DNA of 64,000 nucleotides, taken from the NCBI GenBank assembly GCA_035529075.1, contig DATKXK010000005.1, forward strand, positions 68,981 through 132,980. Reading direction: 5' to 3'. Positions 36,432 to 56,149 of the stretch are shown here, piece by piece; position 1 is the stretch's first letter; every line of letters starts with the position of its first letter. Under the pieces are notes generated by a model. It was not told the origin of the DNA. It saw only the letters and a program-made list of their open reading frames with translations, and searched no databases. Made by a program: the position numbers and the translations under genes. The DNA comes from Acidobacteriota bacterium (GTDB taxonomy: Bacteria > Zixibacteria > MSB-5A5 > GN15 > FEB-12).

Positions 36432-36686
36432 TTACTTCAGCAGCACCATCTTCTTCGTCTGGACAAAATCTCCCGCCTCGAGCCGGTAAAGGTAGACGCC
36501 GCTGGCGACATGGCTCGCGTCCCACGCAACGGTGTGAACGCCCGCCTCGAGCCGTCCGTCGACAAGGGTCGCTACCTGCTGCCCGAGCGTGTTGTAGACC
36601 CGTAACCTGACCTCGCTCGCAACGGGAAGGCCGAACGAAACGTTGGTGGTCGGGTTGAACGGGTTGGGGTGGTTCTGTTCCAGCGC
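36432..36686 (-). other. T9SS-type (Por secretion) C-terminal sorting domain of the metalloprotease
   Basis: 84-aa tail ALEQNHPNPFNPTTNVSFGLP...VYNTLGQQVATLVDG...ASGVYLYRLEAGDFVQTKKMVLLK matches the canonical type A CTD pattern. Confidence 0.8.
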
Positions 36687-39308
36687 GAACGTCGTCGGCA
36701 GTTGCCGATCTTCGCCCGCGCCGGACGGGTGAAGGGTAAGGTCGTAATTGTTGGTGTCCACCACCACCACTTCCGTCAGTGTGAAATCACCCCTGACGCG
36801 GATGACCTCGTAACTGCCGGCCGGCACGCGACGTGACCCTTTGCGGTCAAAGAGGCCGACCGTGACCGTTTCCTCAGACCGCCACACTGCCATCGCTACC
36901 CCGTCCTCGATCAGGTTGACCGGCGCTGCATCGGAGTTCCCCACCAGTTCGAGCTGTAGGGCGCGCAGGTTATACGGCGTACTGAGCGAGACAGTGGTCA
37001 CGCCGTCGTTGAAACTGAGACTGATCTCCACATCGGCCGCCAGCCGCTCGGCCGCCGGCTTCGGGTACATACCGCCGCAGTTGGCACATGGTTCAGGGCC
37101 GCTCGAGTACAGGTAATCGATCAGGTAACACAGATCGCTGACGTTGACCTTGGTGTCACAGTTGACGTCTCCGGAAATCCACGGCACGGGCGCCGGACCG
37201 CCGGAGTAAAGGTAGTCGTGCAGGTACTGCTCGTCCATCGAATCGACAAAACCGCTGTAGTCGACGTCGCCGCAGATGCCCTCGACGATGACCTCCTGGG
37301 TTTCGACGTTTTGACCCCACGGGTAGTGAGCCGTGCAAGTGATGTAGTATGTGCCCCAGTCAGTGTAAGCGTGTACGGGAGCTAACGAAGTATCGGCCGG
37401 AGTGCCATCTCCGAAATCCCACACCAGGAAGTCCCAGGGGTACGTGTCAAGGACTTGCCAGGTCACCGGATCAAGGTTCACATGTGCCGGGTAGTGTGTG
37501 CCATACTGATCTACGCATAGTATGTCCCCGTCCTTCATGAACACTAACGTGGCGTGCGGGCCGAGCCAGTGATCAGCATAAGCGCTGCAGATTGTTCCCG
37601 CGTTTGGCGTGCTGTCTGACAAATCGCCGTTGTCATCATCGGCCAGAAGGAGTGACCGCACCGCCTGTGCCGGTGTTGATATGTCATACGCACTCGAGTA
37701 GAAAACGAGGCTGTCGGTATAGCCGGAACCAAGTGCGGATCGAATCTGCCACCACGAGCCGGACTGCGTACCGCCCAGTTTGTGGTGGTCCGTTTGCACT
37801 CCGCACCAGTTCGGCACGTAGTAGCTATAGTCAAAAACAGGGGTAGTGTTCCGCAGATCAGAAGCGAAATAGTCGGCTTGCCCTTCGTTCCACCAGGTGG
37901 GTAGCGAGCCAAAACGCAAAAGGATGCTGTGATATGCGACCTGATGAGCCATCTCATGGTAGATGACATAGGTGTTGTACCCGCTGTAGGTGTCAATTCC
38001 TATTTCACCGGGAACAAAGTAGCCGGCCCAGCCACCGGTGAGATGTGCTTTTACGGCTACTCTTTCAAAGGCAAGGTCCTCTCCCAGCCAGTCGGCGTAC
38101 CAGGTGTGCATCTTTTTGAGGTGGTAGGCTATGTTCAGGTCTTTATAGTACTCCGGGTGGTCCAGCAGAAGCTGCGTCTCAGTCCAGTCAAAATCGAGAG
38201 TAAAGGAAAGGCTATCCACTATGTTAAATGTATCGGAAACGGCAAACGGTCGGACAAAGTTACCACTGCCGTCGTCCACGAGCGTTAGGCACACGTCATT
38301 GCCCATAAAGTACTTGAAATAGTACTCGTCAACGCCGACTTTACTGGTATAGTGGTAGTAGCCTGTATCATTCGAGAACAACTCCCCCGTCTCCGTAAAC
38401 GAGCCCCCCAGACTGCCGAGTGCCGCTAGAGGAGGTACGCCTGGTGTGCCTGGTTCGTATCCGACCCGATAGGAAGCGGCTGCAAAAGAACCGAACGTGA
38501 ATGGATCAGACTCGTCCATTTCCTTCCACGCACCGGATATATGACCATCAATGTCACCGTTGAATCGCAGAAGTACATCCTGCTGCTTCACTATCTCGCC
38601 CGATCCTGCATCCACGTAGGCCAAATGTGCCCCGATCGGCTCACCCGTGTTGACCAGAAACCGGTATGTCAGATGTACTTTTCCGTCCGCGGCTTCGGTA
38701 TAGGCAATGTCTTCAAACTGCACACGCTCCGGCCGGTATGAACGGAACTCGCTCTCAATTGCCTGTGTTGCTTGGTCTCTTGTCCACAGTATGTGAGGCT
38801 GCACAACGCTGAGGTCGAGCAACTCGACGGTTAGGAAGCTGAGCCTGCCCCGTGCATCAAGCACGCAGTGGATGCCGGCGTTTTCGCCGCAATATCCGTC
38901 CCTCGTCTGGGAAAAGTCTACCCGGGTCAGTTCCCCGAAACTGATAACGGTCGGCTCGTTGAGGTTCCAGCGTTCAAAGTCAATAAAGCTCGAGACCAGT
39001 GTTTGTACGGCGTTTCCTCTATCCGATGAATCACCTGTGAGTTCGATGGGCTTTCCGGTTGCCGTAAAGGAAATGTGCCGAGATGGATTTCTCTTGACGG
39101 TCCACCCGTCCAGGCCTCTCTCGAGCGCCTTCTCAAGCTCGCATTGAATTTCTCCACGGTACTCGGTTAGACCCGGTGAGATCAGCCCCATGGCCTCGGG
39201 CTCGCCGGTTGAAGCGGACTGGTCGGCCGGGTAATAGGCAGACACCTGAGCGCAAAGAAGACCCAGGACAATCAGCATTGCCAACAGTGTTCGATGTGTT
39301 TGTGACAT
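36432..39308 (-). CDS. Secreted HExxH zinc metalloprotease with PKD domain, dockerin-like pair and T9SS C-terminal sorting domain
   Basis: Signal peptide. VIYHEMAHQVAYH (HExxH), WDFGDGTPADTS (PKD), GDVDYSGFVD...GDVNCDTKVNVSDLCYLIDYLYS (dockerin-like). C-terminus is LEQNHPNPFNP...GVYLYRLEAGDFVQTKKMVLLK. Confidence 0.85.
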   Translation of the reverse strand: MSQTHRTLLAMLIVLGLLCAQVSAYYPADQSASTGEPEAMGLISPGLTEYRGEIQCELEKALERGLDGWTVKRNPSRHISFTATGKPIELTGDSSDRGNAVQTLVSSFIDFERWNLNEPTVISFGELTRVDFSQTRDGYCGENAGIHCVLDARGRLSFLTVELLDLSVVQPHILWTRDQATQAIESEFRSYRPERVQFEDIAYTEAADGKVHLTYRFLVNTGEPIGAHLAYVDAGSGEIVKQQDVLLRFNGDIDGHISGAWKEMDESDPFTFGSFAAASYRVGYEPGTPGVPPLAALGSLGGSFTETGELFSNDTGYYHYTSKVGVDEYYFKYFMGNDVCLTLVDDGSGNFVRPFAVSDTFNIVDSLSFTLDFDWTETQLLLDHPEYYKDLNIAYHLKKMHTWYADWLGEDLAFERVAVKAHLTGGWAGYFVPGEIGIDTYSGYNTYVIYHEMAHQVAYHSILLRFGSLPTWWNEGQADYFASDLRNTTPVFDYSYYVPNWCGVQTDHHKLGGTQSGSWWQIRSALGSGYTDSLVFYSSAYDISTPAQAVRSLLLADDDNGDLSDSTPNAGTICSAYADHWLGPHATLVFMKDGDILCVDQYGTHYPAHVNLDPVTWQVLDTYPWDFLVWDFGDGTPADTSLAPVHAYTDWGTYYITCTAHYPWGQNVETQEVIVEGICGDVDYSGFVDSMDEQYLHDYLYSGGPAPVPWISGDVNCDTKVNVSDLCYLIDYLYSSGPEPCANCGGMYPKPAAERLAADVEISLSFNDGVTTVSLSTPYNLRALQLELVGNSDAAPVNLIEDGVAMAVWRSEETVTVGLFDRKGSRRVPAGSYEVIRVRGDFTLTEVVVVDTNNYDLTLHPSGAGEDRQLPTTFALEQNHPNPFNPTTNVSFGLPVASEVRLRVYNTLGQQVATLVDGRLEAGVHTVAWDASHVASGVYLYRLEAGDFVQTKKMVLLK

Positions 39309-39526: not shown

Positions 39527-40090
39527 ATGTCTCAGCCCGCTGACAGCCGGCGCACCCTGGATGAACTCCTCGACAAGGCGAGACAGGGCGACAAATCCGC
39601 GGAAGACCAATTACTTCGATACCTGCGTGTTAGATTCGTTCTGCTTGCCAAAAGAAGAATAGGGGAGGAGTACGCGGAGGATCTGGCCCAGGAGGCCTGC
39701 GTCACCGTCTTGCAGAAGTACCGGGACGTGCCGCCTGCGGGCGCGTTTGAGCCCTGGGCATATGGCGTGCTGCGAAACAAGATAGGCAACTATCTGCAAA
39801 GCAGCGCCGTGCGAAGGGAAACGGACCTCCGCAACGGACGGATGAACGGCCTCGTCGGCCGGCCGTCGGTCGCCTCCGACCCGGTCCTGAAGCTCAGGCT
39901 TCTGGATTGTATCAGAAAGATCGTGAAGCAGCACCCGCGGTACGCGAGAGTTCTCAACCTCGTTTACCAGGGCTACAGCACCACGGAGATTTGCCGCCGG
40001 CTGAAGGTCAGCCCCGGCCACTGCTATGTTCTGCTGAACCGGGGTCGAAAGATGCTGAGCAAATGCCTGGAAGCAGAGGGGAACAAATGA
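39527..40090 (+). CDS. ECF-type RNA polymerase sigma-70 family factor
   Basis: Region 2-like DLAQEACVTVLQKY..PWAYGVLRNK. Region 4 HTH GYSTTEICRRLKVSPGHCYVLLNRGRKML. 187 aa. Confidence 0.9.
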   Translation: MSQPADSRRTLDELLDKARQGDKSAEDQLLRYLRVRFVLLAKRRIGEEYAEDLAQEACVTVLQKYRDVPPAGAFEPWAYGVLRNKIGNYLQSSAVRRETDLRNGRMNGLVGRPSVASDPVLKLRLLDCIRKIVKQHPRYARVLNLVYQGYSTTEICRRLKVSPGHCYVLLNRGRKMLSKCLEAEGNK

Positions 40091-40840: not shown

Positions 40841-43800
40841 ATGGCAATGAAAATTATTCCGAGCCTGCTGCTGTCGGCCGTTGCCTGGCTTTGCGTAGGC
40901 GACCTGCCAACGGCGCAGGAGTCATCCGACGGCAACCTGAAGGCGGCCGAGGCAGGCCGACTTCTCGTCCGGGCTGACTCGCTCAAGGAAAACCGACAAC
41001 TCGATTCCGCCCTTGTCGTGTATCAGTCGGCCGTTGCACAGGCGAGGGAGGCCGGGGCGGAGAATGACTCGACCGTCGTTCAATGTCTGGACGGTCTGGC
41101 GAGCTGCTATTATAAACTGTCGGAATACGAGAGGTGCGATTCGCTGTATCGCCAAGCCTGCTCGATTCGGGTGGTCGTTTTCGGACCGTCCAGCCTCGAA
41201 GTCGCTCGTTCCCTTTTCGACGTGGGCGAGGTTGAGGCAGTACTGGGGCGGTATGAAGAGTCAGTCTCCCTGTTAAACCAGTCTCTGGAACTTCAGGAAC
41301 TTCACCTGGGCCCGTCCCACATCGAACTCGAACCGTGCCTCCGGGAACTCGGCAACGCGCTTTCGATGCTTGGCCGCCTGCCGGAGGCGGAAACGGCGCT
41401 TAAGCGGGCTATTGCCATCGTGGAACAGACAAGGGGGCCTGACGATGTGGCGGTTGTTTCGAATCTTAACTACCTCGGCAACCTCTACGTCAAGCAGTCT
41501 CGTTTTGTCGAAGCAGAACCACTCTTCAAGCGAGCGATCACGCTGGTGGAGAAACAATTGGGCCGTGACCACCCGAAACTGTCCACGGTCCGTTTTTATC
41601 TCGCCGACCTGTACATGTCGCAGCATCGCGATAATGAAGCGGAGCCGCTGCTCAAACAGGCCCTGGCTGTTCAGGAGAGAACGTACGGGCCGGAGGATGA
41701 CCAGGTGGCGCCGTATCTGGCCAGCCTGGCGGTCGTCTACTGGAGGCAGGGACGGTTTGAGGAAGCGGTGCCGCACATGAAACGTGCCCAGCGAATATTC
41801 GAGAGCGTGTATGGTCCCGACCATCCCGTCGTGGCCAGCGTGCTGAACAACCTCGGTACTATTCTGATCGGTCAGGGCAACCTTGCCGAGGCCGAGCGCA
41901 GCTTCGAACGTGCCTTGGAGATTTGGAGCAAAGTGGCTCACGACGTTGCCCGGCGAATTACGACCCTGCACAATCTTGCGGTCGTGTATTTCATGCAGGA
42001 CAAGTACGATCAGGCGGAAGACCTGTGGGCGCAGGTCCTCGCTCACCGCACGGAACTCCTGGGGGCCGATCATCCGGAGGTCGGCATGGTCCGGCTCAGC
42101 CTGGGACGGCTGTTTGAGGAACAGGGCCGGTACGAGGACGCCGAGCGCGAGTTCGGGCAAGCCCGGACGATCTTTGCCGAGCAATGGGGACCCGGCAGCC
42201 TGGGCGTCTCGGCATGCCTGCACGGTCTGAGCGACGTTTATGCGGCCACCGGCCGGTACGCTCAGGCCGAAGAATTCACGGCCGACGCGTTGTCGCTGGA
42301 GAGTAAGGAACTCCGCACCGGTCACCCCTCGCTCAATCGTGGGTTGCATCTGATGGCGGTGATTCATGGATCCCTGGGAGAGTACGAGTCGAGCCGTGCG
42401 AACATGTGCGAATTGCTTGACGCCAGGCACCGCTTTATCGCCCATGTTTTCTCGTACGCCTCGGAAGAGCAAAAGCTCAGATACGTCGATCAGCAGCCGC
42501 TTGTCGATGAGGTGATGCTTTCGCTGGCTCTCATCGATGGTTCCGAAGAGACCCGATCCGCCGCGCTTGAAATGCTGGTGAAAGGCAAAGGTGTCATCAT
42601 TGATGCCATGTCCGCCGAAAATGCGATCATTTCCTGTAAGCCGGGCAGCGAACTGGGGCAGACGGCAGAGCAGTATTCGTTTCTGTGCAAGATGATATCC
42701 ACGCTGGCCATGTCCGGACGCGAGAGTATGGTGTCGCAGCAGACGGCGGACCGGCTGAAGACTCTGTCTCAGGCCAGGGATTCGATCGAAGCGGAGCTCA
42801 GTTTGAGCTGTCTTGAATTCAAGGACGAACTGGACCGGGGTAATTTCTCGCTGCAGAACGTACTCGAGGCGCTGCCCCCGGGCAGCGTCTACCTGGACTA
42901 TGCGCGATTTCGCCCGGTTGACTTCTCGAAGGTCGGCTCATATCAACAAAAACTGGGATCGTCCCGCTATCTCGCCTTTACGCTCGATCACGACGGCCAT
43001 AGCACCCTGCACGACCTCGGCGATGCGAACCAGATCGACAGCTTGGTCAGGAGTTGCCGCCGGCTGATCTACAATGCAGGGGCCGAGTTGCATTCGCCGC
43101 TGGCGGACGTCGCCGAAGAACGGCTTCGAGAAGTCACCGACCGGCTGTATGAAAGGTTGTTTCTCCCGCTGGTCGAGGAGCTCGGTGGCAGGGAAAGCCT
43201 TTTTGTCTCGACTGACGGCCTGCTTACTCTTCTGCCCTTCGAAATCCTGTCGTGTCCGGACCGGTCGTTTCTGATAGAGAACTACCGAATATGCTATCTT
43301 TCGTCAGGACGGGATATCCTTCGATTCGTGGAAGGTCCGGTGTTGGCCGGTGAGGCCGCTGTTTTTGCCGACCCGGATTTTGATAACGCCGGTGTCTCCG
43401 CCGCCAACGTCGCCGAGGTGACGCAGTTCGGCTCGGATTCGGTGTCGGGCACGCAATGGTATGCCGCGCGCGCAGGCGACTGCCCGGCTGTCGGCTTTGA
43501 CCGTCTGGCCCGAAGCCGCTCCGAGGCGGCGTCGATTGTCGGCATCCTCAGGCAAGCGGGGAAGGTGAGGGTCGGCGAATACTACGGTACCGAGGCTCTG
43601 GAAGATGTCTTGAAATCCATGGCTGCTCCGCCGCGCGTTCTGCATCTGGCGACGCACGGCTTTTTTTGCCCGATGTCGGACACGTCCGAATCTCTCGTTG
43701 CCGGCAACCCGTTGCTTCGGTGCGGCCTGGCCTTCGCCGGAGCCAATAGGGCCGGCTTTCCTGCCGGGGACAACGCTCCGGGGGCGGAAGACGGTATCCT

Positions 43801-44149
43801 GACCGGCCTGGAGGCCGCCGGCCTTGATCTGGTCGGAACGGAACTGGTGACCCTGGCCGCGTGCGAAACGGGCCTGGGCGAACTGGTGGATGGAGAGGGC
43901 GTCTTCGGTCTGCGCCGGGCTTTCCAGCGTGCCGGGGCGCAGACTATCGTGATGAGCCTGTGGAAAGTCCCCGATCAGGAAACAGCCGAATTGATGGACG
44001 GTTTCTACCGACGGTGGTGCGGCGGGGCATCAAAGCTGGATGCGCTCCGCGAGTCAGCTCTTGACGTCCTTAACCGGTCACGGACCGAACGAGGACGCAG
44101 TCATCCGTTGCTCTGGGGCGGATTTATCCTGGCCGGCAACCCGTACTGA
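40841..44149 (+). CDS. Exported TPR-repeat / CHAT-domain (caspase-fold) protease
   Basis: N-terminal signal-like MAMKIIPSLLLSAVAWLCVGDLPTAQE. About 10 TPR_12-type units (LNNLGxxYxxQGRYxEAEPLxxRAL). CHAT His/Cys dyad in LHLATHGFF and LAACETGLG. Confidence 0.9.
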   Translation: MAMKIIPSLLLSAVAWLCVGDLPTAQESSDGNLKAAEAGRLLVRADSLKENRQLDSALVVYQSAVAQAREAGAENDSTVVQCLDGLASCYYKLSEYERCDSLYRQACSIRVVVFGPSSLEVARSLFDVGEVEAVLGRYEESVSLLNQSLELQELHLGPSHIELEPCLRELGNALSMLGRLPEAETALKRAIAIVEQTRGPDDVAVVSNLNYLGNLYVKQSRFVEAEPLFKRAITLVEKQLGRDHPKLSTVRFYLADLYMSQHRDNEAEPLLKQALAVQERTYGPEDDQVAPYLASLAVVYWRQGRFEEAVPHMKRAQRIFESVYGPDHPVVASVLNNLGTILIGQGNLAEAERSFERALEIWSKVAHDVARRITTLHNLAVVYFMQDKYDQAEDLWAQVLAHRTELLGADHPEVGMVRLSLGRLFEEQGRYEDAEREFGQARTIFAEQWGPGSLGVSACLHGLSDVYAATGRYAQAEEFTADALSLESKELRTGHPSLNRGLHLMAVIHGSLGEYESSRANMCELLDARHRFIAHVFSYASEEQKLRYVDQQPLVDEVMLSLALIDGSEETRSAALEMLVKGKGVIIDAMSAENAIISCKPGSELGQTAEQYSFLCKMISTLAMSGRESMVSQQTADRLKTLSQARDSIEAELSLSCLEFKDELDRGNFSLQNVLEALPPGSVYLDYARFRPVDFSKVGSYQQKLGSSRYLAFTLDHDGHSTLHDLGDANQIDSLVRSCRRLIYNAGAELHSPLADVAEERLREVTDRLYERLFLPLVEELGGRESLFVSTDGLLTLLPFEILSCPDRSFLIENYRICYLSSGRDILRFVEGPVLAGEAAVFADPDFDNAGVSAANVAEVTQFGSDSVSGTQWYAARAGDCPAVGFDRLARSRSEAASIVGILRQAGKVRVGEYYGTEALEDVLKSMAAPPRVLHLATHGFFCPMSDTSESLVAGNPLLRCGLAFAGANRAGFPAGDNAPGAEDGILTGLEAAGLDLVGTELVTLAACETGLGELVDGEGVFGLRRAFQRAGAQTIVMSLWKVPDQETAELMDGFYRRWCGGASKLDALRESALDVLNRSRTERGRSHPLLWGGFILAGNPY

Positions 44150-44315
44150 GATCGGCACTTTCGGGCCGGATGGTTGCAGAGATGTGCCGTGACAGGCCGG
44201 ACTTCGCCTGAGGACTTTCGGGTTCGCCGGGGGCGCATCAAGTGGAAGGCGGTGCACCGGGAGCCGCCGGCAGGCCTTCAAACTGCGGGGTCATCCTCTC
44301 GACAAACCCGTCGGA
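43988..44315. repeat. Direct repeat copy A (~325 bp): CHAT 3' end + spacer + diverged apbE 3' fragment
   Basis: 43988-44248 matches 47088-47348 with 2 mismatches (44021, 44143). 44249-44315 matches 47349-47415 at only ~80%. The offset is exactly 3100 bp. Confidence 0.92.
44238..44315 (-). pseudogene. Remnant of an apbE 3' end (last ~25 codons)
   Basis: Minus strand reads (S)DGFVERMTPQFEGLPAAPGAPPST*, compared with the intact apbE end PDGFVERMTPQFESLLAAPAVPSST*. There is no upstream coding continuation. Confidence 0.75.
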
Positions 44316-44325
44316 AGAGTTCGTT

Positions 44326-44559
44326 TTATTTCAGCAGCACTGTTTTCTGTGTCTGAGCGAAATCCCCGGCCTCGAGCCGGTAGAGGTGTACGAACCCACT
44401 GGCGTTGTGTTCGGGCTTATTCTTCGGTACTGGTGAGCCGTTCAGACTGTGCGACATTCCAAAGAAGCGGCCGGGCCCCGATGCCTGCAAACCCGCCTGC
44501 AATAATCGGGCTCTTCGTGAATATCCAGCCAGCCAGAGTTGCCAGCGCAACCGGCGCCT
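44326..44559 (-). pseudogene. Degenerate T9SS sorting-domain remnant, in frame with and directly downstream of the Kelch/TolB gene stop
   Basis: The last residues ...NASGFVHLYRLEAGDFAQTQKTVLLK* parallel the CTD end of the 36432 gene (ASGVYLYRLEAGDFVQTKKMVLLK*). The upstream two-thirds of a CTD is not recognisable. It shares the frame of 44560-46860, separated by the TAG at 44560-44562. Confidence 0.45.
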
Positions 44560-46860
44560 CTACGGAATTCTGCTGCCTTTCGCAGCAGGCGGCACAAGTG
44601 ATCGCCACGCCGGAAATTCGTCATGGGCGCTGTTGTTGGTCAACTTCCGCCGGTTAGTGCCGTCCACGTTCATTATGTAGATTTCCCCGTCGCCGTCCTG
44701 CCACGATGCAAATACGATCTGCTTGCCGTCGGCAGACCAATCCGGGCAGTTCTCGCCGGCATAAGTGGTCGACAGTTTCTGCAGGCCGCTGCCGTCGGCA
44801 TTGATGATATAGATCCCCCGGAAACCTGCATGATCGGAACCAAAGACAATACGGGTGCCATCCGGCGACCAGTCCGGTTCGAAGCAGACGATATCCATCA
44901 ACTTATGCTCATCGCTGCCATCGGCATCCATTATGAAGGTGCCTTCATTGTCGTTGATGCGGGAGAAGACAATCTGACTACCGTCTGGTGACCATGCGGG
45001 AAAATCCTCGGAGCTGGAAGGGGTATCGGTCAGACGCTGCAGATTGGAGCCGTCTGCATGAATGACATAAATCTCGCCCTGGCCGTCGCGCCATGATGCG
45101 AACACTATGTGCACGCCATCGGGCGACCACTGAGGCCAGAAATCCATAGCGGTATGGGATGTCAGTTGTTGCACGCTGCTGCCGTCGGCATTCATGACGT
45201 AGATATCGGGGTTCCCGCCTCGGGTCGACACGAAGGCAATCCGTGAACCGTCGGGCGACCAGCTCGGCCCGGCGTCGTAGGCCGGATCGTCCGTCAGACG
45301 GCGTACGTGGCTGCCGTCGATCTTCATGAGGTAGATGTCCCCTGCACCGTCCCGTTCTGACGTGAAGGCAATCGTTGAGTCAACTGCGACCGGGCACGGC
45401 GGCAGCGGCTCATAGGTGATAAACAGATACTTGATCATCCGCGTCAGGTCCGAGATATCGACCACGCCGTCGGGCTCTGCCTCCGGGCCGATGTCGGCCT
45501 CGGCCAGGCAACAGATCGGTTGGCGAGAGATGAACAGGAAATCAATGAGGTTGGTCAGATCGCTGACATCGACTGTCTGATCGCTGTATTCGCACTCGCC
45601 CAGTAGCATGACATTGCCTATCGTGCCCTCACAGCAGCAGGCATCGCCGACATTATCGCTGTCGCCGTCCTCCTGAAGCGGGTTGTATACGAAGGGGCAG
45701 TTGTCGACGTCGGCACACAGACCGTCCCCGTCGACGTCGTTGTACGGATCCAGCGGGCAGTCGTCGCAGTCGTTGCCGATCCCATCACCGTCTGTATCCA
45801 CCTGGGCCGGGTTGTAAAGTACAGAACAGTTGTCAACCGGGCACGTGTTCTCGGCGTGACCGGGATCGCCGTAACCGTCGAGATCACCATCCGTACAGGA
45901 TCCGACCACAAAACCCTCGTTGGCATCGCTGGCCCCGGCTCCCGTCTGATAGGCACCGGCCACTACGAAGATCGTGTCTCCGATGACTGCCGCGTTGGTT
46001 CCGTGGCGCGGCGTGAGCATGGGCGTCAGCGGCTCCCAGGTATCGGTGCCGGGATCATACAACTCTACTTCCTCGTAGATGTCCGGAATCTCCCCGCCAA
46101 ACGTATACAGCTTTCCGCCAAGGGCCGCCGTCGAAAACGCGCTGCGCGGCGTCAGCATGTCTGCCAGTGTGTACCAGGTATCGCTGGCCGGCGAGTATGC
46201 TTCAGTCACCGGGACCAGCTCGAGAGACTCTCCCCAGTAGCCGATTCTCCCGCCCACTACGTAGATCAGGGAATCGATTACCGCTACTCCCGGGTGGTGA
46301 CGGGCCGTAGGCATGCTCGTGCCCGGAGACCAGCTATCCATCTGCGGATCATACACCTCGACCGAAGCCAGATCATCACCGTAGGTGTTGTTGCCGCCGA
46401 ATACGTAGATAAGACCATCGTAGGCCACAGCGCTGTGTTCACCCCGAGCCGTGGCCAGGGGGGCTCGAGGCGCCCAGCTATCGGTCGATGGCTCATAAGC
46501 CCAGACGGTGCTCGTAGCGATCCACGGCAGGCCGGCATTGCTGTAGCCACCGATCGCGTAAAGTACCCCGTCCACCACGGCCGTGGCACAGTGATGGCGG
46601 GCCTCGGGCAGCAGGGCCGCTGTCGACCAGGTATTGGCGGCTGGATCATACACATAGACACTGCCACTCACGACCAGGCTGGGGGTATACCCGCCCACAA
46701 CGTAGATGCGCCCGTCGAGCACGGCCGGCAGAACCTCCTGTCTGGCTTCCGGCAGCTCAGGACGTTCGAACCAGTAACCGGGCCCCTGGCCATAGGCAAA
46801 CCCGGCTAAGACATTCAACGCTATCAGGATGACGAGACAGACACGGGAACGGCGTTTCAT
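44560..46860 (-). CDS. Secreted mosaic protein: 6 Kelch repeats + TSP3-type Ca-binding repeats + dockerin-like pair + TolB-like (PD40) beta-propeller
   Basis: Signal peptide MKRRSRVCLVILIALNVLAGFAYG (ATG at 46860 preferred over 46917). Six units of PxARxxxxxAVxDGxIYVxGG. DTDGDGIGNDCDDCPLDPYNDVDGDGLCADVDNCP. DVSDLTNLIDFLF / DISDLTRMIKYLF. Repeated IAFxSxRDGxxDIYVMNADGSxxxxLT. Confidence 0.85.
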   Translation of the reverse strand: MKRRSRVCLVILIALNVLAGFAYGQGPGYWFERPELPEARQEVLPAVLDGRIYVVGGYTPSLVVSGSVYVYDPAANTWSTAALLPEARHHCATAVVDGVLYAIGGYSNAGLPWIATSTVWAYEPSTDSWAPRAPLATARGEHSAVAYDGLIYVFGGNNTYGDDLASVEVYDPQMDSWSPGTSMPTARHHPGVAVIDSLIYVVGGRIGYWGESLELVPVTEAYSPASDTWYTLADMLTPRSAFSTAALGGKLYTFGGEIPDIYEEVELYDPGTDTWEPLTPMLTPRHGTNAAVIGDTIFVVAGAYQTGAGASDANEGFVVGSCTDGDLDGYGDPGHAENTCPVDNCSVLYNPAQVDTDGDGIGNDCDDCPLDPYNDVDGDGLCADVDNCPFVYNPLQEDGDSDNVGDACCCEGTIGNVMLLGECEYSDQTVDVSDLTNLIDFLFISRQPICCLAEADIGPEAEPDGVVDISDLTRMIKYLFITYEPLPPCPVAVDSTIAFTSERDGAGDIYLMKIDGSHVRRLTDDPAYDAGPSWSPDGSRIAFVSTRGGNPDIYVMNADGSSVQQLTSHTAMDFWPQWSPDGVHIVFASWRDGQGEIYVIHADGSNLQRLTDTPSSSEDFPAWSPDGSQIVFSRINDNEGTFIMDADGSDEHKLMDIVCFEPDWSPDGTRIVFGSDHAGFRGIYIINADGSGLQKLSTTYAGENCPDWSADGKQIVFASWQDGDGEIYIMNVDGTNRRKLTNNSAHDEFPAWRSLVPPAAKGSRIP

Positions 46861-47087
46861 GACAATATCTCTTGAGTTAAAGGTCAAACCAGACGACCTC
46901 GCAAAGGACGACGGCAAAACTGGTATTTAATAGACGAATACCAACCGACATTGTTCAGCTATTCCAGCTGCAGCGTGCCTGTCCTGTAACTGCCGCTGCC
47001 TGCCCTAAAATGCTCCTTTTAGCCTTACTCTCTTACGAGCAGGATGAACTTCCCGGGCCCTTCTCTGCGCCCATCAGTTACTGCACT

Positions 47088-47249
47088 GAATTGATGGACG
47101 GTTTCTACCGACGGTGGTGCAGCGGGGCATCAAAGCTGGATGCGCTCCGCGAGTCAGCTCTTGACGTCCTTAACCGGTCACGGACCGAACGAGGACGCAG
47201 TCATCCGTTGCTCTGGGGCGGATTTATCCTGGCCGGCAACCCATACTGA
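47088..47249 (+). pseudogene. Orphan copy of the last 53 codons of the TPR-CHAT gene
   Basis: ELMDGFYRRWCSGASKLDALRESALDVLNRSRTERGRSHPLLWGGFILAGNPY* differs at one residue from the end of 40841-44149. The track ORF 47010-47249 merely adds unrelated upstream codons. Confidence 0.8.
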
Positions 47250-47415
47250 GATCGGCACTTTCGGGCCGGATGGTTGCAGAGATGTGCCGTGACAGGCCGG
47301 ACTTCGCCTGAGGACTTTCGGGTTCGCCGGGGGCGCATCAAGTGGAAGACGGCACAGCCGGAGCCGCAAGCAGGCTTTCAAACTGCGGGGTCATCCTTTC
47401 GACAAAGCCGTCCGG
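47088..47415. repeat. Direct repeat copy B (~325 bp): truncated CHAT 3' end + spacer + genuine apbE 3' end
   Basis: See copy A. Identical block structure, shifted by 3100 bp. Confidence 0.92.
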
Positions 47416-48414
47416 AGTTCTCACAACGAGTAACGCCGCCAGACCTTTGCCGAGCGCCAGCGCATAGCCGTCCGCCGGGCCCAGGATATTGATCGCCGTC
47501 GCCATCGCATCGGCGTACCAGCAGGAATCATGGATCACCGTCACCGAGGCCAGGCGGTGCCTTATCGGCTGTCCTGTCCTGGGATCGATGAGGTGTGAAT
47601 AGCGGACGCCGCCTGTCTCGAAGTAGTTTCGATAGTCTCCGGACGTTGCCATGGCGCAATTGACAAGAGACGCGACTTTCTGCACACCCGAATCCCCGTC
47701 GGGAGTCTCTATGCCGATCTGCCACACCTGATCCCTGTCGTTGCGACCCCGCGCTTTCATCTCCCCGCCGATCTCGACGAGATAGTCGGACAGGCCTGCC
47801 GAGTCAAGGTACCGGGCGATTTCGTCAACGCCGTAGCCCTTGGCGATTGCCGCCAGATCACAGTAGACCCCCGCGTTGTCCTTTTTCAAGGCAGGCGGAT
47901 CCAGCCGGACGGCGATCCTGGCGTACCCGGTGCGCGCCATGGCCCGGGTGATTTCTTCGGGTGTCGGTAGCCTGCGATCGGTCGTCGGGGGACCGAATCC
48001 CCAGAGGTTCACCAGCGGGCCAACCGTAATATCAAACGTACCACCCGTTTCCCGACTTACCCCCAGAGACTGTTCGATGATGCGTGCCGTGGCGGCCGAC
48101 ACGAGGAACCAGTCGGTTTTCTTCCGGTAGTTGAACCGCGAAATCTCCGAACTCTTCAGGTAGCAGGACATCTGAGCGTTGACGGCCTGCAACAGGCTGT
48201 CGATGCCCCGCCTGGCCAGTTCGATCTGCTCATGCGCAAGGTCGGCTGCGTGGCTGATTTTGACACTGTATACGGTCCCCATGGTTTCGCCGCGGATGAC
48301 AACCGGTCCGGCAGGGGCCGGGTTGTCCGAGCAGCCGGCAAGAAGCCCGGCGGCAACCAGCCATCCGGTCAGCCGCCGCCGCGCCCGGTCGGGATTCATC
48401 GCTCTGAACTTCAT
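47338..48414 (-). CDS. apbE: FAD:protein FMN transferase (flavin transferase ApbE), lipoprotein
   Basis: Lipobox LLAGC. GTFDITVGPLVNLWGFG, DLAAIAKGYGVD, AMATSGDYRNYF, YSHLIDPRTGQP. Confidence 0.92.
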   Translation of the reverse strand: MKFRAMNPDRARRRLTGWLVAAGLLAGCSDNPAPAGPVVIRGETMGTVYSVKISHAADLAHEQIELARRGIDSLLQAVNAQMSCYLKSSEISRFNYRKKTDWFLVSAATARIIEQSLGVSRETGGTFDITVGPLVNLWGFGPPTTDRRLPTPEEITRAMARTGYARIAVRLDPPALKKDNAGVYCDLAAIAKGYGVDEIARYLDSAGLSDYLVEIGGEMKARGRNDRDQVWQIGIETPDGDSGVQKVASLVNCAMATSGDYRNYFETGGVRYSHLIDPRTGQPIRHRLASVTVIHDSCWYADAMATAINILGPADGYALALGKGLAALLVVRTPDGFVERMTPQFESLLAAPAVPSST

Positions 48415-48548
48415 TATATCATTATAGTGGATCCTCTTCGGCCAGGCCAGTCGGCAGTGCCCGACATTCCGTTTTTCTTGAGCCGGGTAGGTCAGTCCCG
48501 GTGAGCCGGGCGGCCGTGATGACTGCCGGAGCTTGTGAAAAATATCTC

Positions 48549-48577
48549 TTGCGGCCGGATCATGATATTTTTATACT
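48549..48577 (+). promoter_or_regulatory. Candidate promoter of the cytochrome/Rnf operon (would give a ~175-nt structured leader)
   Basis: TTGCGG-17 nt-TATACT. Downstream lies the hairpin cggtgcc-cgtc-ggcaccg at ~48589-48606. Motif match only. Confidence 0.3.
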
Positions 48578-48753
48578 TTACGGGTGTCCGGTGCCCGTCG
48601 GCACCGCGCAGAATAAACCCTGCCGAGGGAGCAGGTCAGAGCGCTTGCTGAAAGTCGGTCGCATGAGTACCTGGTCGCCGGTCCGGTAGGTTTGAGTCAT
48701 GGGGACGCGAGGTACCGCCCGGTCTTGCTCGACCGTAGAAAAGAGGATGTAAC

Positions 48754-49227
48754 ATGCCGGAGAAGAAGAAAGATCAAGCGGACAGTTGGGAGGGCATGTT
48801 CTGGAAACCGCACAAGTATAATGAGCGGATCAACCTGAAATCCGGTTCGTATCTCCGTACCTTCTGCCCTCGCTGCGACGAAGAACTGACTGAAGGTAAC
48901 GTGATCCGGCTTGAGGTGATTAACCTCAACGATGAATCGGGGTGGATTGAGCTGAGCACGTACCTGAACGTTTTTGAGCGGAAGACCGATATCAAGCTGC
49001 CTGAGGATCAAGAAGTCAAGGATCTCCGTTGCCGTCACTGTCACCGTTCATTGGTCGTGGAGGGCCGGCGCTGTGGAACCTGCAATTCCCACGCGGCCGG
49101 CATTGTGGTCGGCGTCTCCAACACCAAGGTGCCTTTCCTGATTTGCACGCGCATAGGTTGTCACTGGCACGCTATTCTGCCCGATGACGAAGACCAGATA
49201 ATTCTCGATGACAGCCGTGAATGGTAA
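48754..49227 (+). CDS. Cytoplasmic 8-Cys (double zinc-ribbon-like) protein of unknown function, first gene of the Rnf-type operon
   Basis: 157 aa with no signal peptide. Cys pairs CPRC, CRHC, CGTC, CTRIGC. Its stop lies 1 nt before the cytochrome start. Confidence 0.6.
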   Translation: MPEKKKDQADSWEGMFWKPHKYNERINLKSGSYLRTFCPRCDEELTEGNVIRLEVINLNDESGWIELSTYLNVFERKTDIKLPEDQEVKDLRCRHCHRSLVVEGRRCGTCNSHAAGIVVGVSNTKVPFLICTRIGCHWHAILPDDEDQIILDDSREW

Positions 49228-49228
49228 T

Positions 49229-49840
49229 ATGCAGGCGCACAGAAAACCCACTTTCCTGATAATTCTTACCGTCGTGGCCGCCGTTGCGGCCGTGGGCGGC
49301 TACTGGGTGGGAGAGGAATCCTCGGACACCAGCCGATTCTTCCTGAGTAGCTCCGGCGGCGACGTGGTGTTCGAGCACGGGGCGCATACGGAAATGGCCG
49401 CGGGGTGTGAAAGCTGCCACCATGATCTCCTGCTGGCCGATTCACGGCAGCCGTGCAGCACTTGTCACGGCGACGACGTTGCGGCGGAGGATTTCGATCA
49501 TGATGACCTCAAGACCATCTCGGCGCACAGTTGCGAGACATGCCACGAGGTCAACGACCAGGCCGAGGCAGGGTCATGTCGCAGTTGCCACCCGTCGGCT
49601 CAGGACGCGGAACCGCAAACGGTGGCCTGCGGGCAGTGCCACGACGGCTACTCGGCCGATTTGATGACCCACGACGAGATGCAGGAAATCGAGGGGCACG
49701 CGTGCGAAGGGTGCCACGTCATTGAGGCGGTCAGTACCGTGTACCACCGTCAGTGTGAGGGCTGTCACCTTGCCGAAAGCCCCGAGAAGTTTGCCACCGA
49801 AACCGGAGAAAGCCAGTGTCAATCGTGTCACCTGAGGTGA
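49229..49840 (+). CDS. Membrane-anchored/exported octahaem c-type cytochrome
   Basis: N-terminal MQAHRKPTFLIILTVVAAVAAVGGYWV. Eight CxxCH motifs in ~150 aa: CESCH, CSTCH, CETCH, CRSCH, CGQCH, CEGCH, CEGCH, CQSCH. ATG at 49229 is preferred to the track start at 49208, which overlaps the previous gene. Confidence 0.88.
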   Translation: MQAHRKPTFLIILTVVAAVAAVGGYWVGEESSDTSRFFLSSSGGDVVFEHGAHTEMAAGCESCHHDLLLADSRQPCSTCHGDDVAAEDFDHDDLKTISAHSCETCHEVNDQAEAGSCRSCHPSAQDAEPQTVACGQCHDGYSADLMTHDEMQEIEGHACEGCHVIEAVSTVYHRQCEGCHLAESPEKFATETGESQCQSCHLR

Positions 49841-49856
49841 ATTTCAGCTTGCGGGT

Positions 49857-51167
49857 TTGCCCATGAATTCCATACGGACACTTTTCAGGACCCTTGGCCA
49901 CATCGGGGATTGCGCCTCACATGAGGAGAAGATTTCCGCAATCGCCGACCCGCCGTACGTCTGCATCCCGCTGGAGTATCCGGGCCAGATCCTGTACAAG
50001 CCCCTGGTGCAGGCGGGTGATACGGTGCGCAGGAACCAGATCATCGGCCGGTCCGGGCAGGGTAATTGTGTCCACGCGTCGGTAAGCGGAACAGTGAAGG
50101 AGATCAGGCCCGTCTGGACTGCGCGAAGCTACAACGTGCCCTCGGTCGTGATTGAGCGAAACGGCGGCGCCCCGCTGTCGGTGGGCGAAGTCTTTGAGCA
50201 GTACGGCGTGCGGTTTGCCTCGGCGTCCCGGATACAGAAAATGAAGGCCCTGGGGGTTGTCTCGCCGTGGACTCTGCCGGGCAAGTTCCACCGTGAAGAG
50301 GAGGTGGAGGAGTTCCCCGAGGTCAGACAGATCATTATCAAGGGAAAAAACGAAGAACCCAGTATTTTCACGTTCGAACTGCTGCTTGAGCAGGAATCTG
50401 AGAAAGTGACTCGGGGGATTCAGCAACTGACCAGCATCGCCCCCAATGCTCTGATCTGGCTGACCGTGCCGAGGCGCCTGGCTGCCTGGGCGCGTGAGAC
50501 TTTCGGCGACTCCGTCAAAGTTGCGCCCCTTGGGGACGGTTACAAGGACCGTCTGGAGCGGCTGCTTGTCCCGCGCCTGACCGGGATCACGATAGCCAAC
50601 ACCGCCCCGTACCGGCAGGAAGGGATTGCCGTCATATCGGTCGAGTACCTCCTGGCCATGGTCGACGCGCTTGAAGGCCGCAGCCCGTTCACGCACAAGC
50701 ACCTGACTGTCGCCGGGCATAACGTCTCCAGACCCGTTACGGTCAAGTTCCCTATAGGCACACCCATCCGAACACTCCTGGAGAGCCAGCAGCTTCACGA
50801 CAAGTCGTTCGCACGCCTGCTGGTCGGGGGGCCGATGAAGGGAATCGCGCAGTTTAGTGACGAAACTCCCCTCACCAAGTCCTGTCACGGTCTTTACGTG
50901 ATATCAGCGGATCAATTGCCGCTGGAGGTGAACCTTACGTGCATAAACTGCGGCCGGTGTACGCGGGCGTGCCCGCTTAACCTGCAGGTGCACCTGATCG
51001 GCCGCTACGTCGAATATAACCTGCTGCTTGAGGCCAGGGGATTTCACCCGGAAGCCTGCAATGAGTGCGGGTTGTGCGCCTATGTCTGTCCGGCTCACAG
51101 GCCGCTGGTACAACTTATCACTATGTGTAATCAGTACGATGAGCACGCCGATGGTCAGAACGTATGA
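49857..51167 (+). CDS. rnfC: RnfC-like subunit retaining two [4Fe-4S] motifs but lacking the Gly-rich NADH/FMN-binding motifs
   Basis: RnfC_N pattern (VCIPLEYPGQILYKPLVQAGDTVRRNQIIG..VHASVSGTVKEI), LLVGGPMKG, CINCGRCTRACP and CNECGLCAYVCP. Where RsxC/RnfC has G(L/V)GGAGFPT and INxAECEPY, this protein has VVSPWTLPGKF and IKGKNEEPS. Confidence 0.82.
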   Translation: MPMNSIRTLFRTLGHIGDCASHEEKISAIADPPYVCIPLEYPGQILYKPLVQAGDTVRRNQIIGRSGQGNCVHASVSGTVKEIRPVWTARSYNVPSVVIERNGGAPLSVGEVFEQYGVRFASASRIQKMKALGVVSPWTLPGKFHREEEVEEFPEVRQIIIKGKNEEPSIFTFELLLEQESEKVTRGIQQLTSIAPNALIWLTVPRRLAAWARETFGDSVKVAPLGDGYKDRLERLLVPRLTGITIANTAPYRQEGIAVISVEYLLAMVDALEGRSPFTHKHLTVAGHNVSRPVTVKFPIGTPIRTLLESQQLHDKSFARLLVGGPMKGIAQFSDETPLTKSCHGLYVISADQLPLEVNLTCINCGRCTRACPLNLQVHLIGRYVEYNLLLEARGFHPEACNECGLCAYVCPAHRPLVQLITMCNQYDEHADGQNV

Positions 51168-52125
51168 GAAACTGAACGTAGCTTCCAGCCCTCACTGGCG
51201 GGATGGAAGCGCCCTGGATTTGACTTACAAGCTGTGGCTGCTGGCCCTGGCGCCGGCCATGATCGTGAGCCTGCTGATGTTCGGTTGGCAGGCGTTACGG
51301 GTTCTCGGCCTGGCCGTGGCCTGTTCCGTATTCCTGGATGCGCTCGTCAACCGGATAAAGCCCTCCAAGGACTTTACGACCAATTGGAGCAGCGTTACGT
51401 TCGGCGTGATCCTCGCCCTGATGATGCCGTATGACGCCGCCTGGTGGCTGATTCTGGTGGGTTGCCTGATCATGATTGTGGTGGGCAAAAAGCTTTTCGG
51501 CGGCGTGGGAGCGTACCCCGTGCACCCGGTCCTGCTCAGTCTGGCCATGCTGCATGTATCCTGGCCGCACCGCTTCGACTTCACCGCTTCCATGGTTTCA
51601 CTGGATCTCGGTGTCAAGATGGTCGAGCCGATGCGTCTCGTCAAAACGCTGGGCGCGGGCGCCGAGGCTGCATATCGCTGGCAGGATCTCCTGCTGGGCA
51701 AACAGGTGGCCGGCATCGGTAGCGGGCTCGTCCTGTACCTGCTTATAGGCGGCCTGCTCCTGATTCTTTTCCGCCAGATTCCGTGGCACATCCCGGTCGC
51801 CTTTATTGTCGGTAACCTGGTGATGGGGGAGGTTCTGCACCTGGCGGATCCGGTTCAGTTCGCCACACCGCTCTTCTACCTTCTGTCCGGCGGCACTGTT
51901 TTCGCCGCTTTTTTCCTGGCGACGGAGTACACGACTTCGCCCGTGAACCCGGTTCCGATGTTGTTATACGGGTTCCTGGGTGGGGCTTTGCTGATAGTAA
52001 TTCGCGCGTTTTCGAACTACACTGACGGCGTGGTGTTTACGATCCTGCTGATCAACCTGTGCAATCCGCTTCTCGATCGCATCACGCCCAGGGTATACGG
52101 CATAGAGGCGGCTCAGCATGCGTGA
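51139..52125 (+). CDS. rnfD: RnfD/NqrB-family membrane subunit (divergent at the FMN-attachment site)
   Basis: VASSPHW near the N-terminus, KKLFGGVGAYPVHPVLLSLAML, YLLSGGTVFAAFFLATE, NYTDGVVFTILLINLCNPLLD. ATG at 51139 is chosen; the track start at 51028 lies deep inside rnfC. Confidence 0.86.
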   Translation: MSTPMVRTYEKLNVASSPHWRDGSALDLTYKLWLLALAPAMIVSLLMFGWQALRVLGLAVACSVFLDALVNRIKPSKDFTTNWSSVTFGVILALMMPYDAAWWLILVGCLIMIVVGKKLFGGVGAYPVHPVLLSLAMLHVSWPHRFDFTASMVSLDLGVKMVEPMRLVKTLGAGAEAAYRWQDLLLGKQVAGIGSGLVLYLLIGGLLLILFRQIPWHIPVAFIVGNLVMGEVLHLADPVQFATPLFYLLSGGTVFAAFFLATEYTTSPVNPVPMLLYGFLGGALLIVIRAFSNYTDGVVFTILLINLCNPLLDRITPRVYGIEAAQHA

Positions 52126-52717
52126 AGTAATCAGGCTAGTCGTGGTGCTCACCGTCATCTGCGGTGTCTCGGCGGGTGCTCTGACGCTTGTGCGGCAGTC
52201 ACTGGGTTCTCGCATTGAGCAGCAGAGCGATTTTTATGTTCGCGGCCCGGCGCTGGAGCGCCTGTTCGGCCAACCATCGGCGGAGCTGCTTGACAAGAAG
52301 GTCAGCTTTACCTCCGACGGGCGCACGTATCCGGTTTTTTATACGCGTGACGGCGAGCAGATCACAGGGCTGGCCGTCGAGGCACCCGGCCCGGGAGGGT
52401 ACGGCGGCGATGTCGTCGTCATGATTGGTGTGGACCTGCGTGCCGGGCAGATGGTAGGTATGGAGATAATCCAGCATAATGAGACGCCCGGCGTCGGCTC
52501 GCAGGTGGAAAGGCCGGCCTTCCGCAAACAGTGGAGCGGCCTGTCCGTCTCCGAGCCCGTGCAGCTGACTGCGCAAGGGGGCAAGATTGACGCCATCAGC
52601 GGTGCCACGTACTCATCGAAGGCGGTGATCAACGGAACGAACGCCATTGTCGAATTGCTGGGCCGTCACCGTGACGAGATTATGGCTTCAATACGGACGA
52701 AAGAGGGTCAATCGTAG
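52118..52717 (+). CDS. rnfG: RnfG subunit (periplasmic FMN_bind domain)
   Basis: N-terminal anchor VVVLTVICGVSAGAL. HNETPGVG. Flavinylation motif DAISGATYSSKAV (SGAT at 52598-52609). Confidence 0.9.
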   Translation: MREVIRLVVVLTVICGVSAGALTLVRQSLGSRIEQQSDFYVRGPALERLFGQPSAELLDKKVSFTSDGRTYPVFYTRDGEQITGLAVEAPGPGGYGGDVVVMIGVDLRAGQMVGMEIIQHNETPGVGSQVERPAFRKQWSGLSVSEPVQLTAQGGKIDAISGATYSSKAVINGTNAIVELLGRHRDEIMASIRTKEGQS

Positions 52718-52746
52718 ACTGCCCTGACGGGGTGTGAGAAGCGAAT

Positions 52747-53358
52747 ATGAGTTTACGGAAGGTACTGTTTCACGGGTTCTGGAAAGACCTGCCGCCGTTT
52801 CGTCTGGTCCTGGGTCTGTGCCCGTCTCTGGCCGTGACTTCATCGGCCGAGAACGGTCTGGGTATGGGACTGGCGGCGACGTTCGTGCTCGTCTTTTCCA
52901 ATCTGTTTATCTCCGTGCTGCGCAAAATGATCCCGGACAAGGTACGCATTGCCAGTTACATCGTGGTTATCGCCACCCTGACTGTTCTCGTGGAGATGGC
53001 GATGAAGGCGTACTTCTTCCCGCTTTCGCAGCAGTTGGGAATTTACATTCCCCTGATCGTCGTTAACTGCATTATTCTCGGCCGGGCGGAAGCGTACGCC
53101 TCGAAGAACCCGCCTCACCTCTCGATTGTTGATGGCATCAGCATCGGGTTGGGTTTCACGATTTCGCTGACGGTGGTCGGATCGATCCGTGAGATTCTGG
53201 GTGCCGGGCAGTGGTTTGGCACGTACGTTCTCTGGGACAGCTACGAGCCGTTTGAGTTCATGATCAAGGCCCCGGGTGCCTTTATCTGCCTGGGCGTGCT
53301 GTTGGGTCTGATGAACGCATACAGCCGCATGCGCGGTGAAACCTTCATACAGTCGTAG
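52747..53358 (+). CDS. rnfE: RnfE subunit
   Basis: LVLGLCPSLAVT, GLGMGLAATFVL, LGIYIPLIVVNCIILGRAEAYA. Confidence 0.9.
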   Translation: MSLRKVLFHGFWKDLPPFRLVLGLCPSLAVTSSAENGLGMGLAATFVLVFSNLFISVLRKMIPDKVRIASYIVVIATLTVLVEMAMKAYFFPLSQQLGIYIPLIVVNCIILGRAEAYASKNPPHLSIVDGISIGLGFTISLTVVGSIREILGAGQWFGTYVLWDSYEPFEFMIKAPGAFICLGVLLGLMNAYSRMRGETFIQS

Positions 53359-53367
53359 GAGGTACTG

Positions 53368-53943
53368 ATGGACCTGTTGTTGCTCGCGATCAGTGCGATC
53401 TTTGTGAACAATATCCTCCTGGCCCAGTACCTCGGCAACTGCCCCTTCTGCGGCGTCTCCAAGAAGCTGAACACGTCCATCGGGATGGGGGTGGCGGTGA
53501 TCTTTGTGGTGGCGCTGGCCTCGGTGTTCACGTGGCTGGTTTACTACTACGTTTTGAAACCGTACGATATGGAGTTCATCCAAACCCTCGTCTTCATTCT
53601 GATTATCGCGTCGCTCGTTCAGTTTGTGGAGATCTTTCTTAAGAAGCAGAGTAAGGCGCTGTACAACGCGTTGGGGATCTACCTGCCGCTGATCACGACG
53701 AACTGCGCCGTCATGGGCATCGCACTGCTTAATATCAAGCACGAATTCAACTTCATCGAGATGGTGATATTCTCAGTTGCCAGTTCCGCAGGTTTTGCCC
53801 TGGCGATCATACTGTTCGCCGGGCTGCGGGAGCGGCTGCTGGTCTCACCGGTCCCTCGGGCCATGCAGGGGACAGCCGTGGCGCTTCTGACGGCCGGTAT
53901 CATGTCGCTGGCGTTCTTGGGCTTTTACGGTATGGTTCAGTGA
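53368..53943 (+). CDS. rnfA: RnfA subunit
   Basis: NNILLAQYLGNCPFCGVS, LGIYLPLITTNCAVMG, GFALAIILFAGLRERL. Confidence 0.9.
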   Translation: MDLLLLAISAIFVNNILLAQYLGNCPFCGVSKKLNTSIGMGVAVIFVVALASVFTWLVYYYVLKPYDMEFIQTLVFILIIASLVQFVEIFLKKQSKALYNALGIYLPLITTNCAVMGIALLNIKHEFNFIEMVIFSVASSAGFALAIILFAGLRERLLVSPVPRAMQGTAVALLTAGIMSLAFLGFYGMVQ

Positions 53944-53958
53944 GATAGAAAGTAGGGT

Positions 53959-56058: not shown

Positions 56059-56099
56059 CGGTGCGACCGGCTCCCCGCCTGACCTGATTTCACTGACGG

Positions 56100-56133: not shown

Positions 56134-56149
56134 ATATCTCCCAAAATAG

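Follow-up and report, generated by a model that had tools for sequence, protein, structure and literature searches.

The DNA analyzed here (hereafter the window) is a stretch of 64,000 nucleotides from contig DATKXK010000005.1 of NCBI GenBank assembly GCA_035529075.1 (positions 68,981 to 132,980, forward strand), in which the gene for a TPR-CHAT protein and apbE, the gene for an FAD:protein FMN transferase, point toward each other across a 2.77-kb cassette (44316/44317-47087) holding a single minus-strand gene. The cassette is bracketed by two copies of a 328-bp direct repeat, each made of the ends of both neighboring genes and the spacer between them. In our judgment host recombination probably produced this configuration, through an enzyme-independent duplicative insertion where two genes converge; a second recombination event would have followed. 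Both neighboring genes stayed intact because the 328-bp gene-end segment ended up on both sides of the insert. The parts of the locus, in positions of the window, are the following.

40841-44149, plus strand: TPR-CHAT gene, 1102 amino acids (aa) (Pfam TPR_12, 2.6e-85; CHAT, 8e-65)
43988-44315: repeat copy A, made of the last 54 CHAT codons, the 88-bp spacer and a dead apbE tail
43988-44248: near-identical block of copy A, 259/261 against 47088-47348
44150-44237: spacer of copy A, from the CHAT stop to the dead apbE stop, 88 bp, 88/88 identical to 47250-47337
44238-44315, minus strand: dead apbE tail, stop plus 25 codons, SDGFVERMTPQFEGLPAAPGAPPST followed by the stop
44249-44315: diverged block of copy A, 55/67 against 47349-47415
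44317-44322: junction J1, on the apbE side, 6-nt microhomology GAGTTC shared with apbE at 47415-47420
44326-44559, minus strand: decayed C-terminal sorting domain of the type IX secretion system (T9SS), 234 nt, one domain length
44560-46917, minus strand: inserted gene (Pfam Kelch_1, 7e-61, and PD40, 4.5e-51; NCBIfam TolB propeller)
46918-47087, minus strand: cassette-native 5' region, presumed to hold the promoter, ending at junction J2 (47087/47088)
47088-47415: repeat copy B, made of a dead CHAT tail, the 88-bp spacer and the true apbE 3' end
47088-47249, plus strand: dead CHAT tail, 54 codons plus stop
47338-48414, minus strand: apbE, 358 aa (353 aa from the second Met) (Pfam ApbE, 8e-86)

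A repeat search of the locus and of the whole window returned the ungapped direct repeat 43988-44315 against 47088-47415, at an offset of 3100 bp, a spacing that is the insert length plus one repeat and has no further meaning. When the two copies were compared base by base without gaps, the block 43988-44248 matched 47088-47348 at 259 of 261 positions, the two differences counted by an earlier sequence-only reading of this DNA. They are confined to 44021 (Gly/Ser) and 44143 (synonymous), such that the longest runs of perfect identity are 33, 121, and 105 nt. The next 67 bp match at 55 positions (82%), close to the roughly 80% proposed before; the earlier end point at 44315/47415 holds for the ungapped alignment, but the apbE homology can be extended by 6 nt, to 44322/47420, if a 2-nt indel is allowed. 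Beyond both repeat ends the identity of the outer flanks drops to 26-30%, the random level, and local alignments of these flanks at either repeat boundary did not score above shuffles and thus give no hint of longer repeats that have worn away. When a 33-nt stretch of the repeat was used as a probe, it matched the window exactly at two places, against none expected from shuffles.

The open reading frames (ORFs) show which gene end is alive in each copy. The CHAT ORF (40841-44149) terminates within copy A and the apbE ORF (47338-48414, minus strand) within copy B, where the true ApbE C-terminus reads PDGFVERMTPQFESLLAAPAVPSST before the stop. Compared with the true end, the dead CHAT tail of copy B carries one Gly-to-Ser and one synonymous change. 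These ORF ends and tail comparisons bear out the earlier proposal that a convergent CHAT/apbE junction is duplicated with one dead tail in each copy, and for annotators they mean that the 54-codon CHAT fragment and the 25-codon apbE fragment are pseudogene tails. Within the spacer, a sigma-70 promoter consensus and a terminator consensus were looked for and neither was found; its predicted fold is no better than those of shuffled sequences, and it has no Rfam match and contains no tRNA.

An ORF of 79 aa (47010-47249, plus strand, ATG start) places 25 new codons in frame with the dead 54-codon CHAT tail. It diverges from the start of the inserted gene and is absent from the JGI and ENA gene calls and from the NCBI annotation; it may be no more than noise, or else a chimeric gene of recent origin.

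All the data are short-read metagenome assemblies, and the structure was checked at the level of contigs and unitigs. Over one or both copies, the window is matched at 100% identity by at least five contigs, each assembled separately. Both copies are crossed, at full identity, by ENA ERZ27256827 k141_3420160 (L081; 203 kb), by a contig of JGI 3300031565 (L096; 266 kb) and by one of JGI 3300031539 (L086/L097; 54 kb). The ENA assembly ERZ27256810 holds the locus as two contigs, L083 over copy B and L093 over copy A, the latter a strain variant with 2 single-nucleotide polymorphisms in 5.9 kb; contig L084 of JGI 3300031673 crosses copy B, and in the NCBI third-party-annotation metagenome-assembled genome (MAG) the CHAT, Kelch, and ApbE proteins are consecutive as HUV29707-09. 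Because the longest identical run is 121 nt, every 141-mer is specific to its copy, which keeps a k=141 graph from exchanging one copy for the other; the copy-specific link runs from the CHAT body through 44021G and 44143G to the A-type tail and the cassette. The Logan unitigs, built at k=31 without repeat resolution, stop where a true repeat would stop them, exactly 30 nt within the block of identity. One of them (L082) ends at 47319, and another (L088), recovered from three samples, covers 44219-47117, which is the predicted 2899 bp of cassette, diverged tail, and 30 nt of block on each side, with both cassette junctions unbranched.

An assembly artefact would mean that the contig is chimeric or has collapsed several strains, or that an uninterrupted chromosome and a separate molecule were wrongly threaded through the repeat they share. 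What can be said for it is that every dataset is of the same short-read metagenomic kind, judged from contigs and not from reads, and that the sample identifiers suggest a single project, such that all contigs may well represent one population seen by several assemblers. The same structure and sequence nevertheless came out of separate samples and pipelines (a megahit-style k141 assembly at ENA, JGI contigs of three samples, and the NCBI MAG), the identical runs of 33, 121, and 105 nt all lie below k=141, and the unscaffolded k=31 unitigs are unbranched over both cassette junctions and break at the predicted places. We therefore hold an artefact to be extremely improbable: as far as the contigs show, the structure is real, though minor excised forms may exist beside it, and the chimeric or strain-collapsed contig considered by the sequence-only reading is not what independent assemblies, spanning both copies at 100% identity, display.

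Between the two blocks of the repeat the identity changes abruptly, with 2 mismatches in 261 positions against 12 in 67 (Fisher p=1.5e-7). The step, at 44248/44249, is three codons from the apbE stop, as had been described, and its significance supports the earlier suggestion that the two halves of the repeat have different histories. Uniform decay was considered and rejected: there are 2 differences over the 250 bp of noncoding spacer plus dead CHAT tail, against 12 in the 67-bp apbE tail. The same step bears on a Campbell-type integration, named by the sequence-only reading alongside an illegitimate duplication-insertion, in which a circle of about 3.1 kb with the cassette and a 328-bp patch would have entered by one RecA-dependent crossover inside the patch. 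The topology is exactly the one expected, with direct repeats of one contiguous chromosomal patch flanking the insert and both neighbors reconstituted, and at 261 bp the near-identical block offers RecA sufficient length. However, the differences between the copies would be those between chromosome and circle wherever the crossover fell, so that the step from 99.2% to 82% must have existed beforehand or have arisen later; moreover, no circle, patch-bearing donor, or replicon or phage homology was found, nor any other context of the cassette in the protein and contig collections. Since the cassette/patch join at 44317 has microhomology, an illegitimate event would be needed anyway to build such a circle. 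The locus thus resembles the insertion-duplications made with suicide plasmids, in which chromosomal direct repeats bracket the insert, the flanking genes are restored and the insert can be lost by recombination; unlike these, its repeat is mosaic (99.2%, then 82%), one join has microhomology, and there is no known replicon, circle, or donor. We regard a Campbell-type origin as unlikely. Because neither uniform decay nor a single Campbell crossover makes the step, it calls for a second event or for a donor that was itself mosaic.

The gene in the cassette encodes a protein with a signal peptide, five Kelch repeats, Asp-rich TSP3-like repeats, dockerin-like motifs, and five PD40 repeats. Its longest ORF has 785 aa, and the gene callers give 775 aa (start at 46887) or 766 aa (ATG at 46860); relatives in its protein family carry PF02412 and PF00404. 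The ORF stops at 44560, and past this point lies the remnant of the sorting domain, in the same frame as the Kelch ORF and separated from it by one TAG and a scrambled stretch. The last 25 codons alone are recognizable, with 20 of the 25 identical to the C-terminus of the 958-aa Por_Secre_tail protein encoded at 36432-39308. The remnant is invisible to Pfam and NCBIfam profiles and was seen solely by pairwise comparison with this neighboring sorting-domain gene. Because in-frame T9SS end codons stand at one domain length, with a scrambled middle to which the profiles are blind, the description of a decayed sorting tail is right, and the earlier placing of a Kelch gene with such a tail between the copies stands. 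The Kelch/PD40 protein has retained its signal peptide and lost its T9SS signal. In composition the cassette is native (GC 0.60; GC at third codon positions 0.71; tetranucleotide distance at the 82nd percentile of windows of the same size), and the family of its gene is typical of related lineages. Similarity of the 5' region 46918-47087 to other parts of the window was looked for and none was found.

Position 44317, at junction J1, marks both the end of the apbE-tail homology and the start of a second, independent one, with the 3' flank of the paralogous sorting-domain gene. The paralogue match covers 36423-36507 against 44317-44404 with 77-79% DNA identity (E=5e-14). J1 lies 9 nt past the stop codon of the cassette, and the 2-nt indel follows the GAGTTC motif. 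The position of J1 in a 6-nt microhomology, 9 nt past the stop, favors an illegitimate join on the apbE side. The two T9SS-cargo genes are 7.9 kb apart, and their DNA likeness covers the 3' ends plus the first 9 nt after the stop codon.

We propose that in the ancestor CHAT and apbE converged on an 88-bp spacer, and that a 2.77-kb piece was joined in, bringing one secreted-protein gene together with the region upstream of it and hardly any flank downstream. Both sides of the cassette would have been left with the 328 bp of gene ends, each gene leaving a dead tail at the far end, and the apbE-side join would have been illegitimate, within the 6-nt microhomology. A second recombination event would then have reset one part of the repeat, such that its two parts differ in age or origin. 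This could have happened in two ways. In the first, an older insertion would have duplicated at least the apbE tail, and a recent gene conversion or one-ended templated repair would have followed, primed in the apbE-tail homology and copying the spacer and the CHAT tail (261 bp, 99.2%) up to an illegitimate end at 47087/47088; in keeping with this version, the left edge is sharp, a 2-nt indel breaks the frame of the dead tail, and the sorting domain beside the diverged block has decayed. In the second, the 328-bp duplication would be recent, and a diverged allele would later have replaced the functional apbE as far as three codons short of the stop.

Several observations weigh against this proposal, or against one of its two versions. 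The dead and live apbE tails differ by 2 changes, both synonymous, in the 12 family-conserved codons DGFVERMTPQFE and by 8 in the variable last 12, a pattern that, with p~0.03 as a rough estimate, weakly suggests two functional alleles rather than decay in place; the conserved codons thus lean toward the allele exchange and away from an old insertion with conversion. No genome with an uninterrupted CHAT/apbE junction is present among the collections searched. A source copy of the cassette is absent from the window and from 5.8 billion proteins, and this source may be lost or unsampled. Lastly, J2 is sharp, and microhomology was assessed at J1 alone, as a source locus for J2 is lacking. The absence of a source copy from the protein database also excludes a recent intragenomic copy-paste.

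The search for strains or relatives with the uninterrupted junction, proposed by the sequence-only reading, was run and returned none in the collections searched, nor was there one among the assembled contigs. Such a junction could hardly be found, because no relative is closer than 58% (ApbE) or 65% (Kelch). Within the 5.8 billion proteins, ApbE matches the same organism at 100% and the next protein at 58%, and in GTDB representative genomes at best 54%; for the Kelch protein the runner-up reaches 65% across the N-terminal 62%, with no paralogue or donor above it. Exact look-ups of the 358-aa ApbE and of the 766-aa Kelch protein of NCBI returned no record. Apart from variants of the start codon, the 90% protein clusters contain just one strain variant, which differs by a single residue and shares the same structure, and a 35-nt spacer pattern had 0 matches in a second metagenome contig collection, one without this organism. 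We infer the ancestral convergent junction from the repeat alone, because the same contiguous block of CHAT tail, spacer, and apbE tail stands in both copies and no uninterrupted genome is available.

The neighborhood of apbE was compared in five relatives with ApbE identities of 51-58%. The rnf side is kept in three of them (56-58%) and the rnf block is absent in two, and CHAT adjoins apbE in none of the relatives examined. In those that keep rnf, the cytochrome c3-like gene, and apbE, the genes downstream of apbE differ in each, which makes the apbE 3' end a recurrent synteny breakpoint. On the side facing away from the insert, past apbE and divergent from it, the window has genes for a 157-aa protein and a cytochrome c3-like protein and then the rnf cluster.

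This arrangement bears on a further possibility, a large tandem duplication that would have started at 43988 and lost most of its first copy, the Kelch gene having originally lain beyond apbE and rnf. Tandem duplication is the commonest bacterial rearrangement and would yield a second CHAT-tail/spacer/apbE copy. The duplicated unit, however, must span apbE and the conserved rnf block of more than 9 kb, leaving a second Kelch copy to the right, and we rejected this origin, which we find highly improbable, on seeing no second Kelch copy in the window or in the protein database.

The block kept in the 56-58% relatives (window 47338-58000; contigs L092, L094, and L095) has apbE divergent from the cytochrome c3-like and rnf genes, and comprises the 157-aa protein (absent in L092), the cytochrome c3-like protein, rnfC/D/G/E/A, a 697-aa protein and an epimerase. 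The 697-aa protein is an RnfB-like Fe-S/pyridine-nucleotide oxidoreductase fusion. The MAG with HUV29707-HUV29709 is labeled Acidobacteriota bacterium at NCBI; the nearest ApbE and Kelch homologues come from Zixibacteria, Aminicenantes, Calditrichota, and KSB1 MAGs at 54-65% identity, with no close sequenced relative. On the other side of the insert, the CHAT gene closes a string of ECF sigma factor (39527-40090), zf-HC2 anti-sigma, and CHAT genes in the gene tables.

Mobility functions were looked for in the cassette and about 6 kb to either side, by Pfam on 19 window ORFs and in the gene tables of the locus, and no integrase, transposase, excisionase, or phage or integrative and conjugative element (ICE) gene was found, in agreement with what the sequence-only reading had noted for integrases and transposases. 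Other large ORFs of the window likewise include no integrase, transposase, or phage gene. No terminal inverted repeats pair the cassette ends, no tRNA was found, and the region had no match to phages or plasmids. An insertion sequence or transposon was rejected, as there is neither a transposase nor a terminal inverted repeat and the duplication is 328 bp, against target-site duplications of 2-15 bp. The locus is neither a mobile element nor a new kind of system.

Another comparison is with elements that integrate site-specifically at the 3' end of a gene, of which e14 and phage 21 in icd are the type; in the present case such an element would later have lost its integrase and the greater part of its remaining DNA. 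A passage of PMC13626634, citing Hill et al. 1989 (PMC210168), describes for e14 in Escherichia coli icd an intact gene end and the C-terminal pseudogene icdC. Here too an intact end on one side faces a C-terminal fragment with partly synonymous differences on the other, as in the icd/icdC pattern, and a replacement 3' end with a displaced C-terminal fragment at the insert's opposite end is what is seen for apbE and, in mirror image, for CHAT. As with e14 and phage 21, the insert lies between an intact end and a partly synonymous C-terminal pseudogene, and its deletion recombines both. Beyond the missing integrase, excisionase, and other phage or ICE genes and the lack of phage or plasmid similarity, however, the repeat runs 250 bp past the apbE stop, through the spacer and the facing gene's tail, and stays 99-100% identical there, which a duplication of att sites does not predict, and its identity profile is the inverse of a short identical core with a diverged remainder. 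Thus, unlike e14 in icd, the locus has no integrase, a single cargo gene, a duplication extending 250 bp beyond the stop and two genes with dead tails, and we consider a remnant of this kind improbable.

The signature of J1 points to a further set of known counterparts of the duplicative insertion we favor, microhomology-mediated illegitimate recombination and template switching. Events of the MMBIR (microhomology-mediated break-induced replication) and FoSTeS (fork stalling and template switching) type are microhomology template-switch insertions, and homology-facilitated illegitimate recombination (HFIR) usually deletes recipient DNA and does not duplicate it. Like the template-switch insertions, the present case has a join in a few bases of microhomology and no element enzyme, and a switch that returns behind its departure point leaves the target doubled, with one copy to either side of the inserted foreign or ectopic segment. 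It differs from them in that no source locus was found here and one junction was assessed, and from HFIR in that the latter usually deletes. HFIR in transformation is discussed in PMC6382021.

Two further repeats of the window lie outside the locus. The 598-aa lipoprotein-like ORF at 18081-19877 (minus strand) contains about 13 tandem units of 39 aa (117-nt period) with a consensus of roughly LxGIWGSSxSDVFAVGDxGTILHYDGTxWxxM and has no Pfam match at E<=1e-5; we take it for a probable repeat protein of beta-propeller-like form. Close to the window's left end, 616-787 and 1135-1306 form a 172-nt direct repeat with 71% identity and a spacing of 519 nt.

With near-identical direct repeats of 261 bp on either side, the cassette can now be lost through ordinary homologous recombination, which would leave its neighbors unharmed. 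This raises the idea of a homology-patch cassette that moves by host recombination, or of a regulatory role for the dead CHAT tail, both of which we take to be a long shot. If the former were true, the 3.1-kb unit of cassette and one patch would be non-autonomous, its entry into the junction and its exit relying solely on homologous recombination by the host; the patch copies of both 3' ends would spare the neighbors, the population could be heterogeneous, on or off, for a surface or secreted protein, and the mosaic patch would be a record of passage through a diverged host. In a weaker variant, the 79-aa ORF at 47010-47249 or antisense read-through from apbE would modulate the CHAT protease. 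As an instance of duplicative insertion, the locus is a fairly ordinary recombination scar of a known kind, well documented in an uncultured lineage. It offers an assembly-validated natural case of a gene gained between two convergent genes, with neither damaged and without mobile-element machinery, and its mosaic repeat would be the record of at least two separate recombination events. In uncultured lineages, such configurations might be of use as markers for the rates of gene conversion and deletion between short direct repeats.

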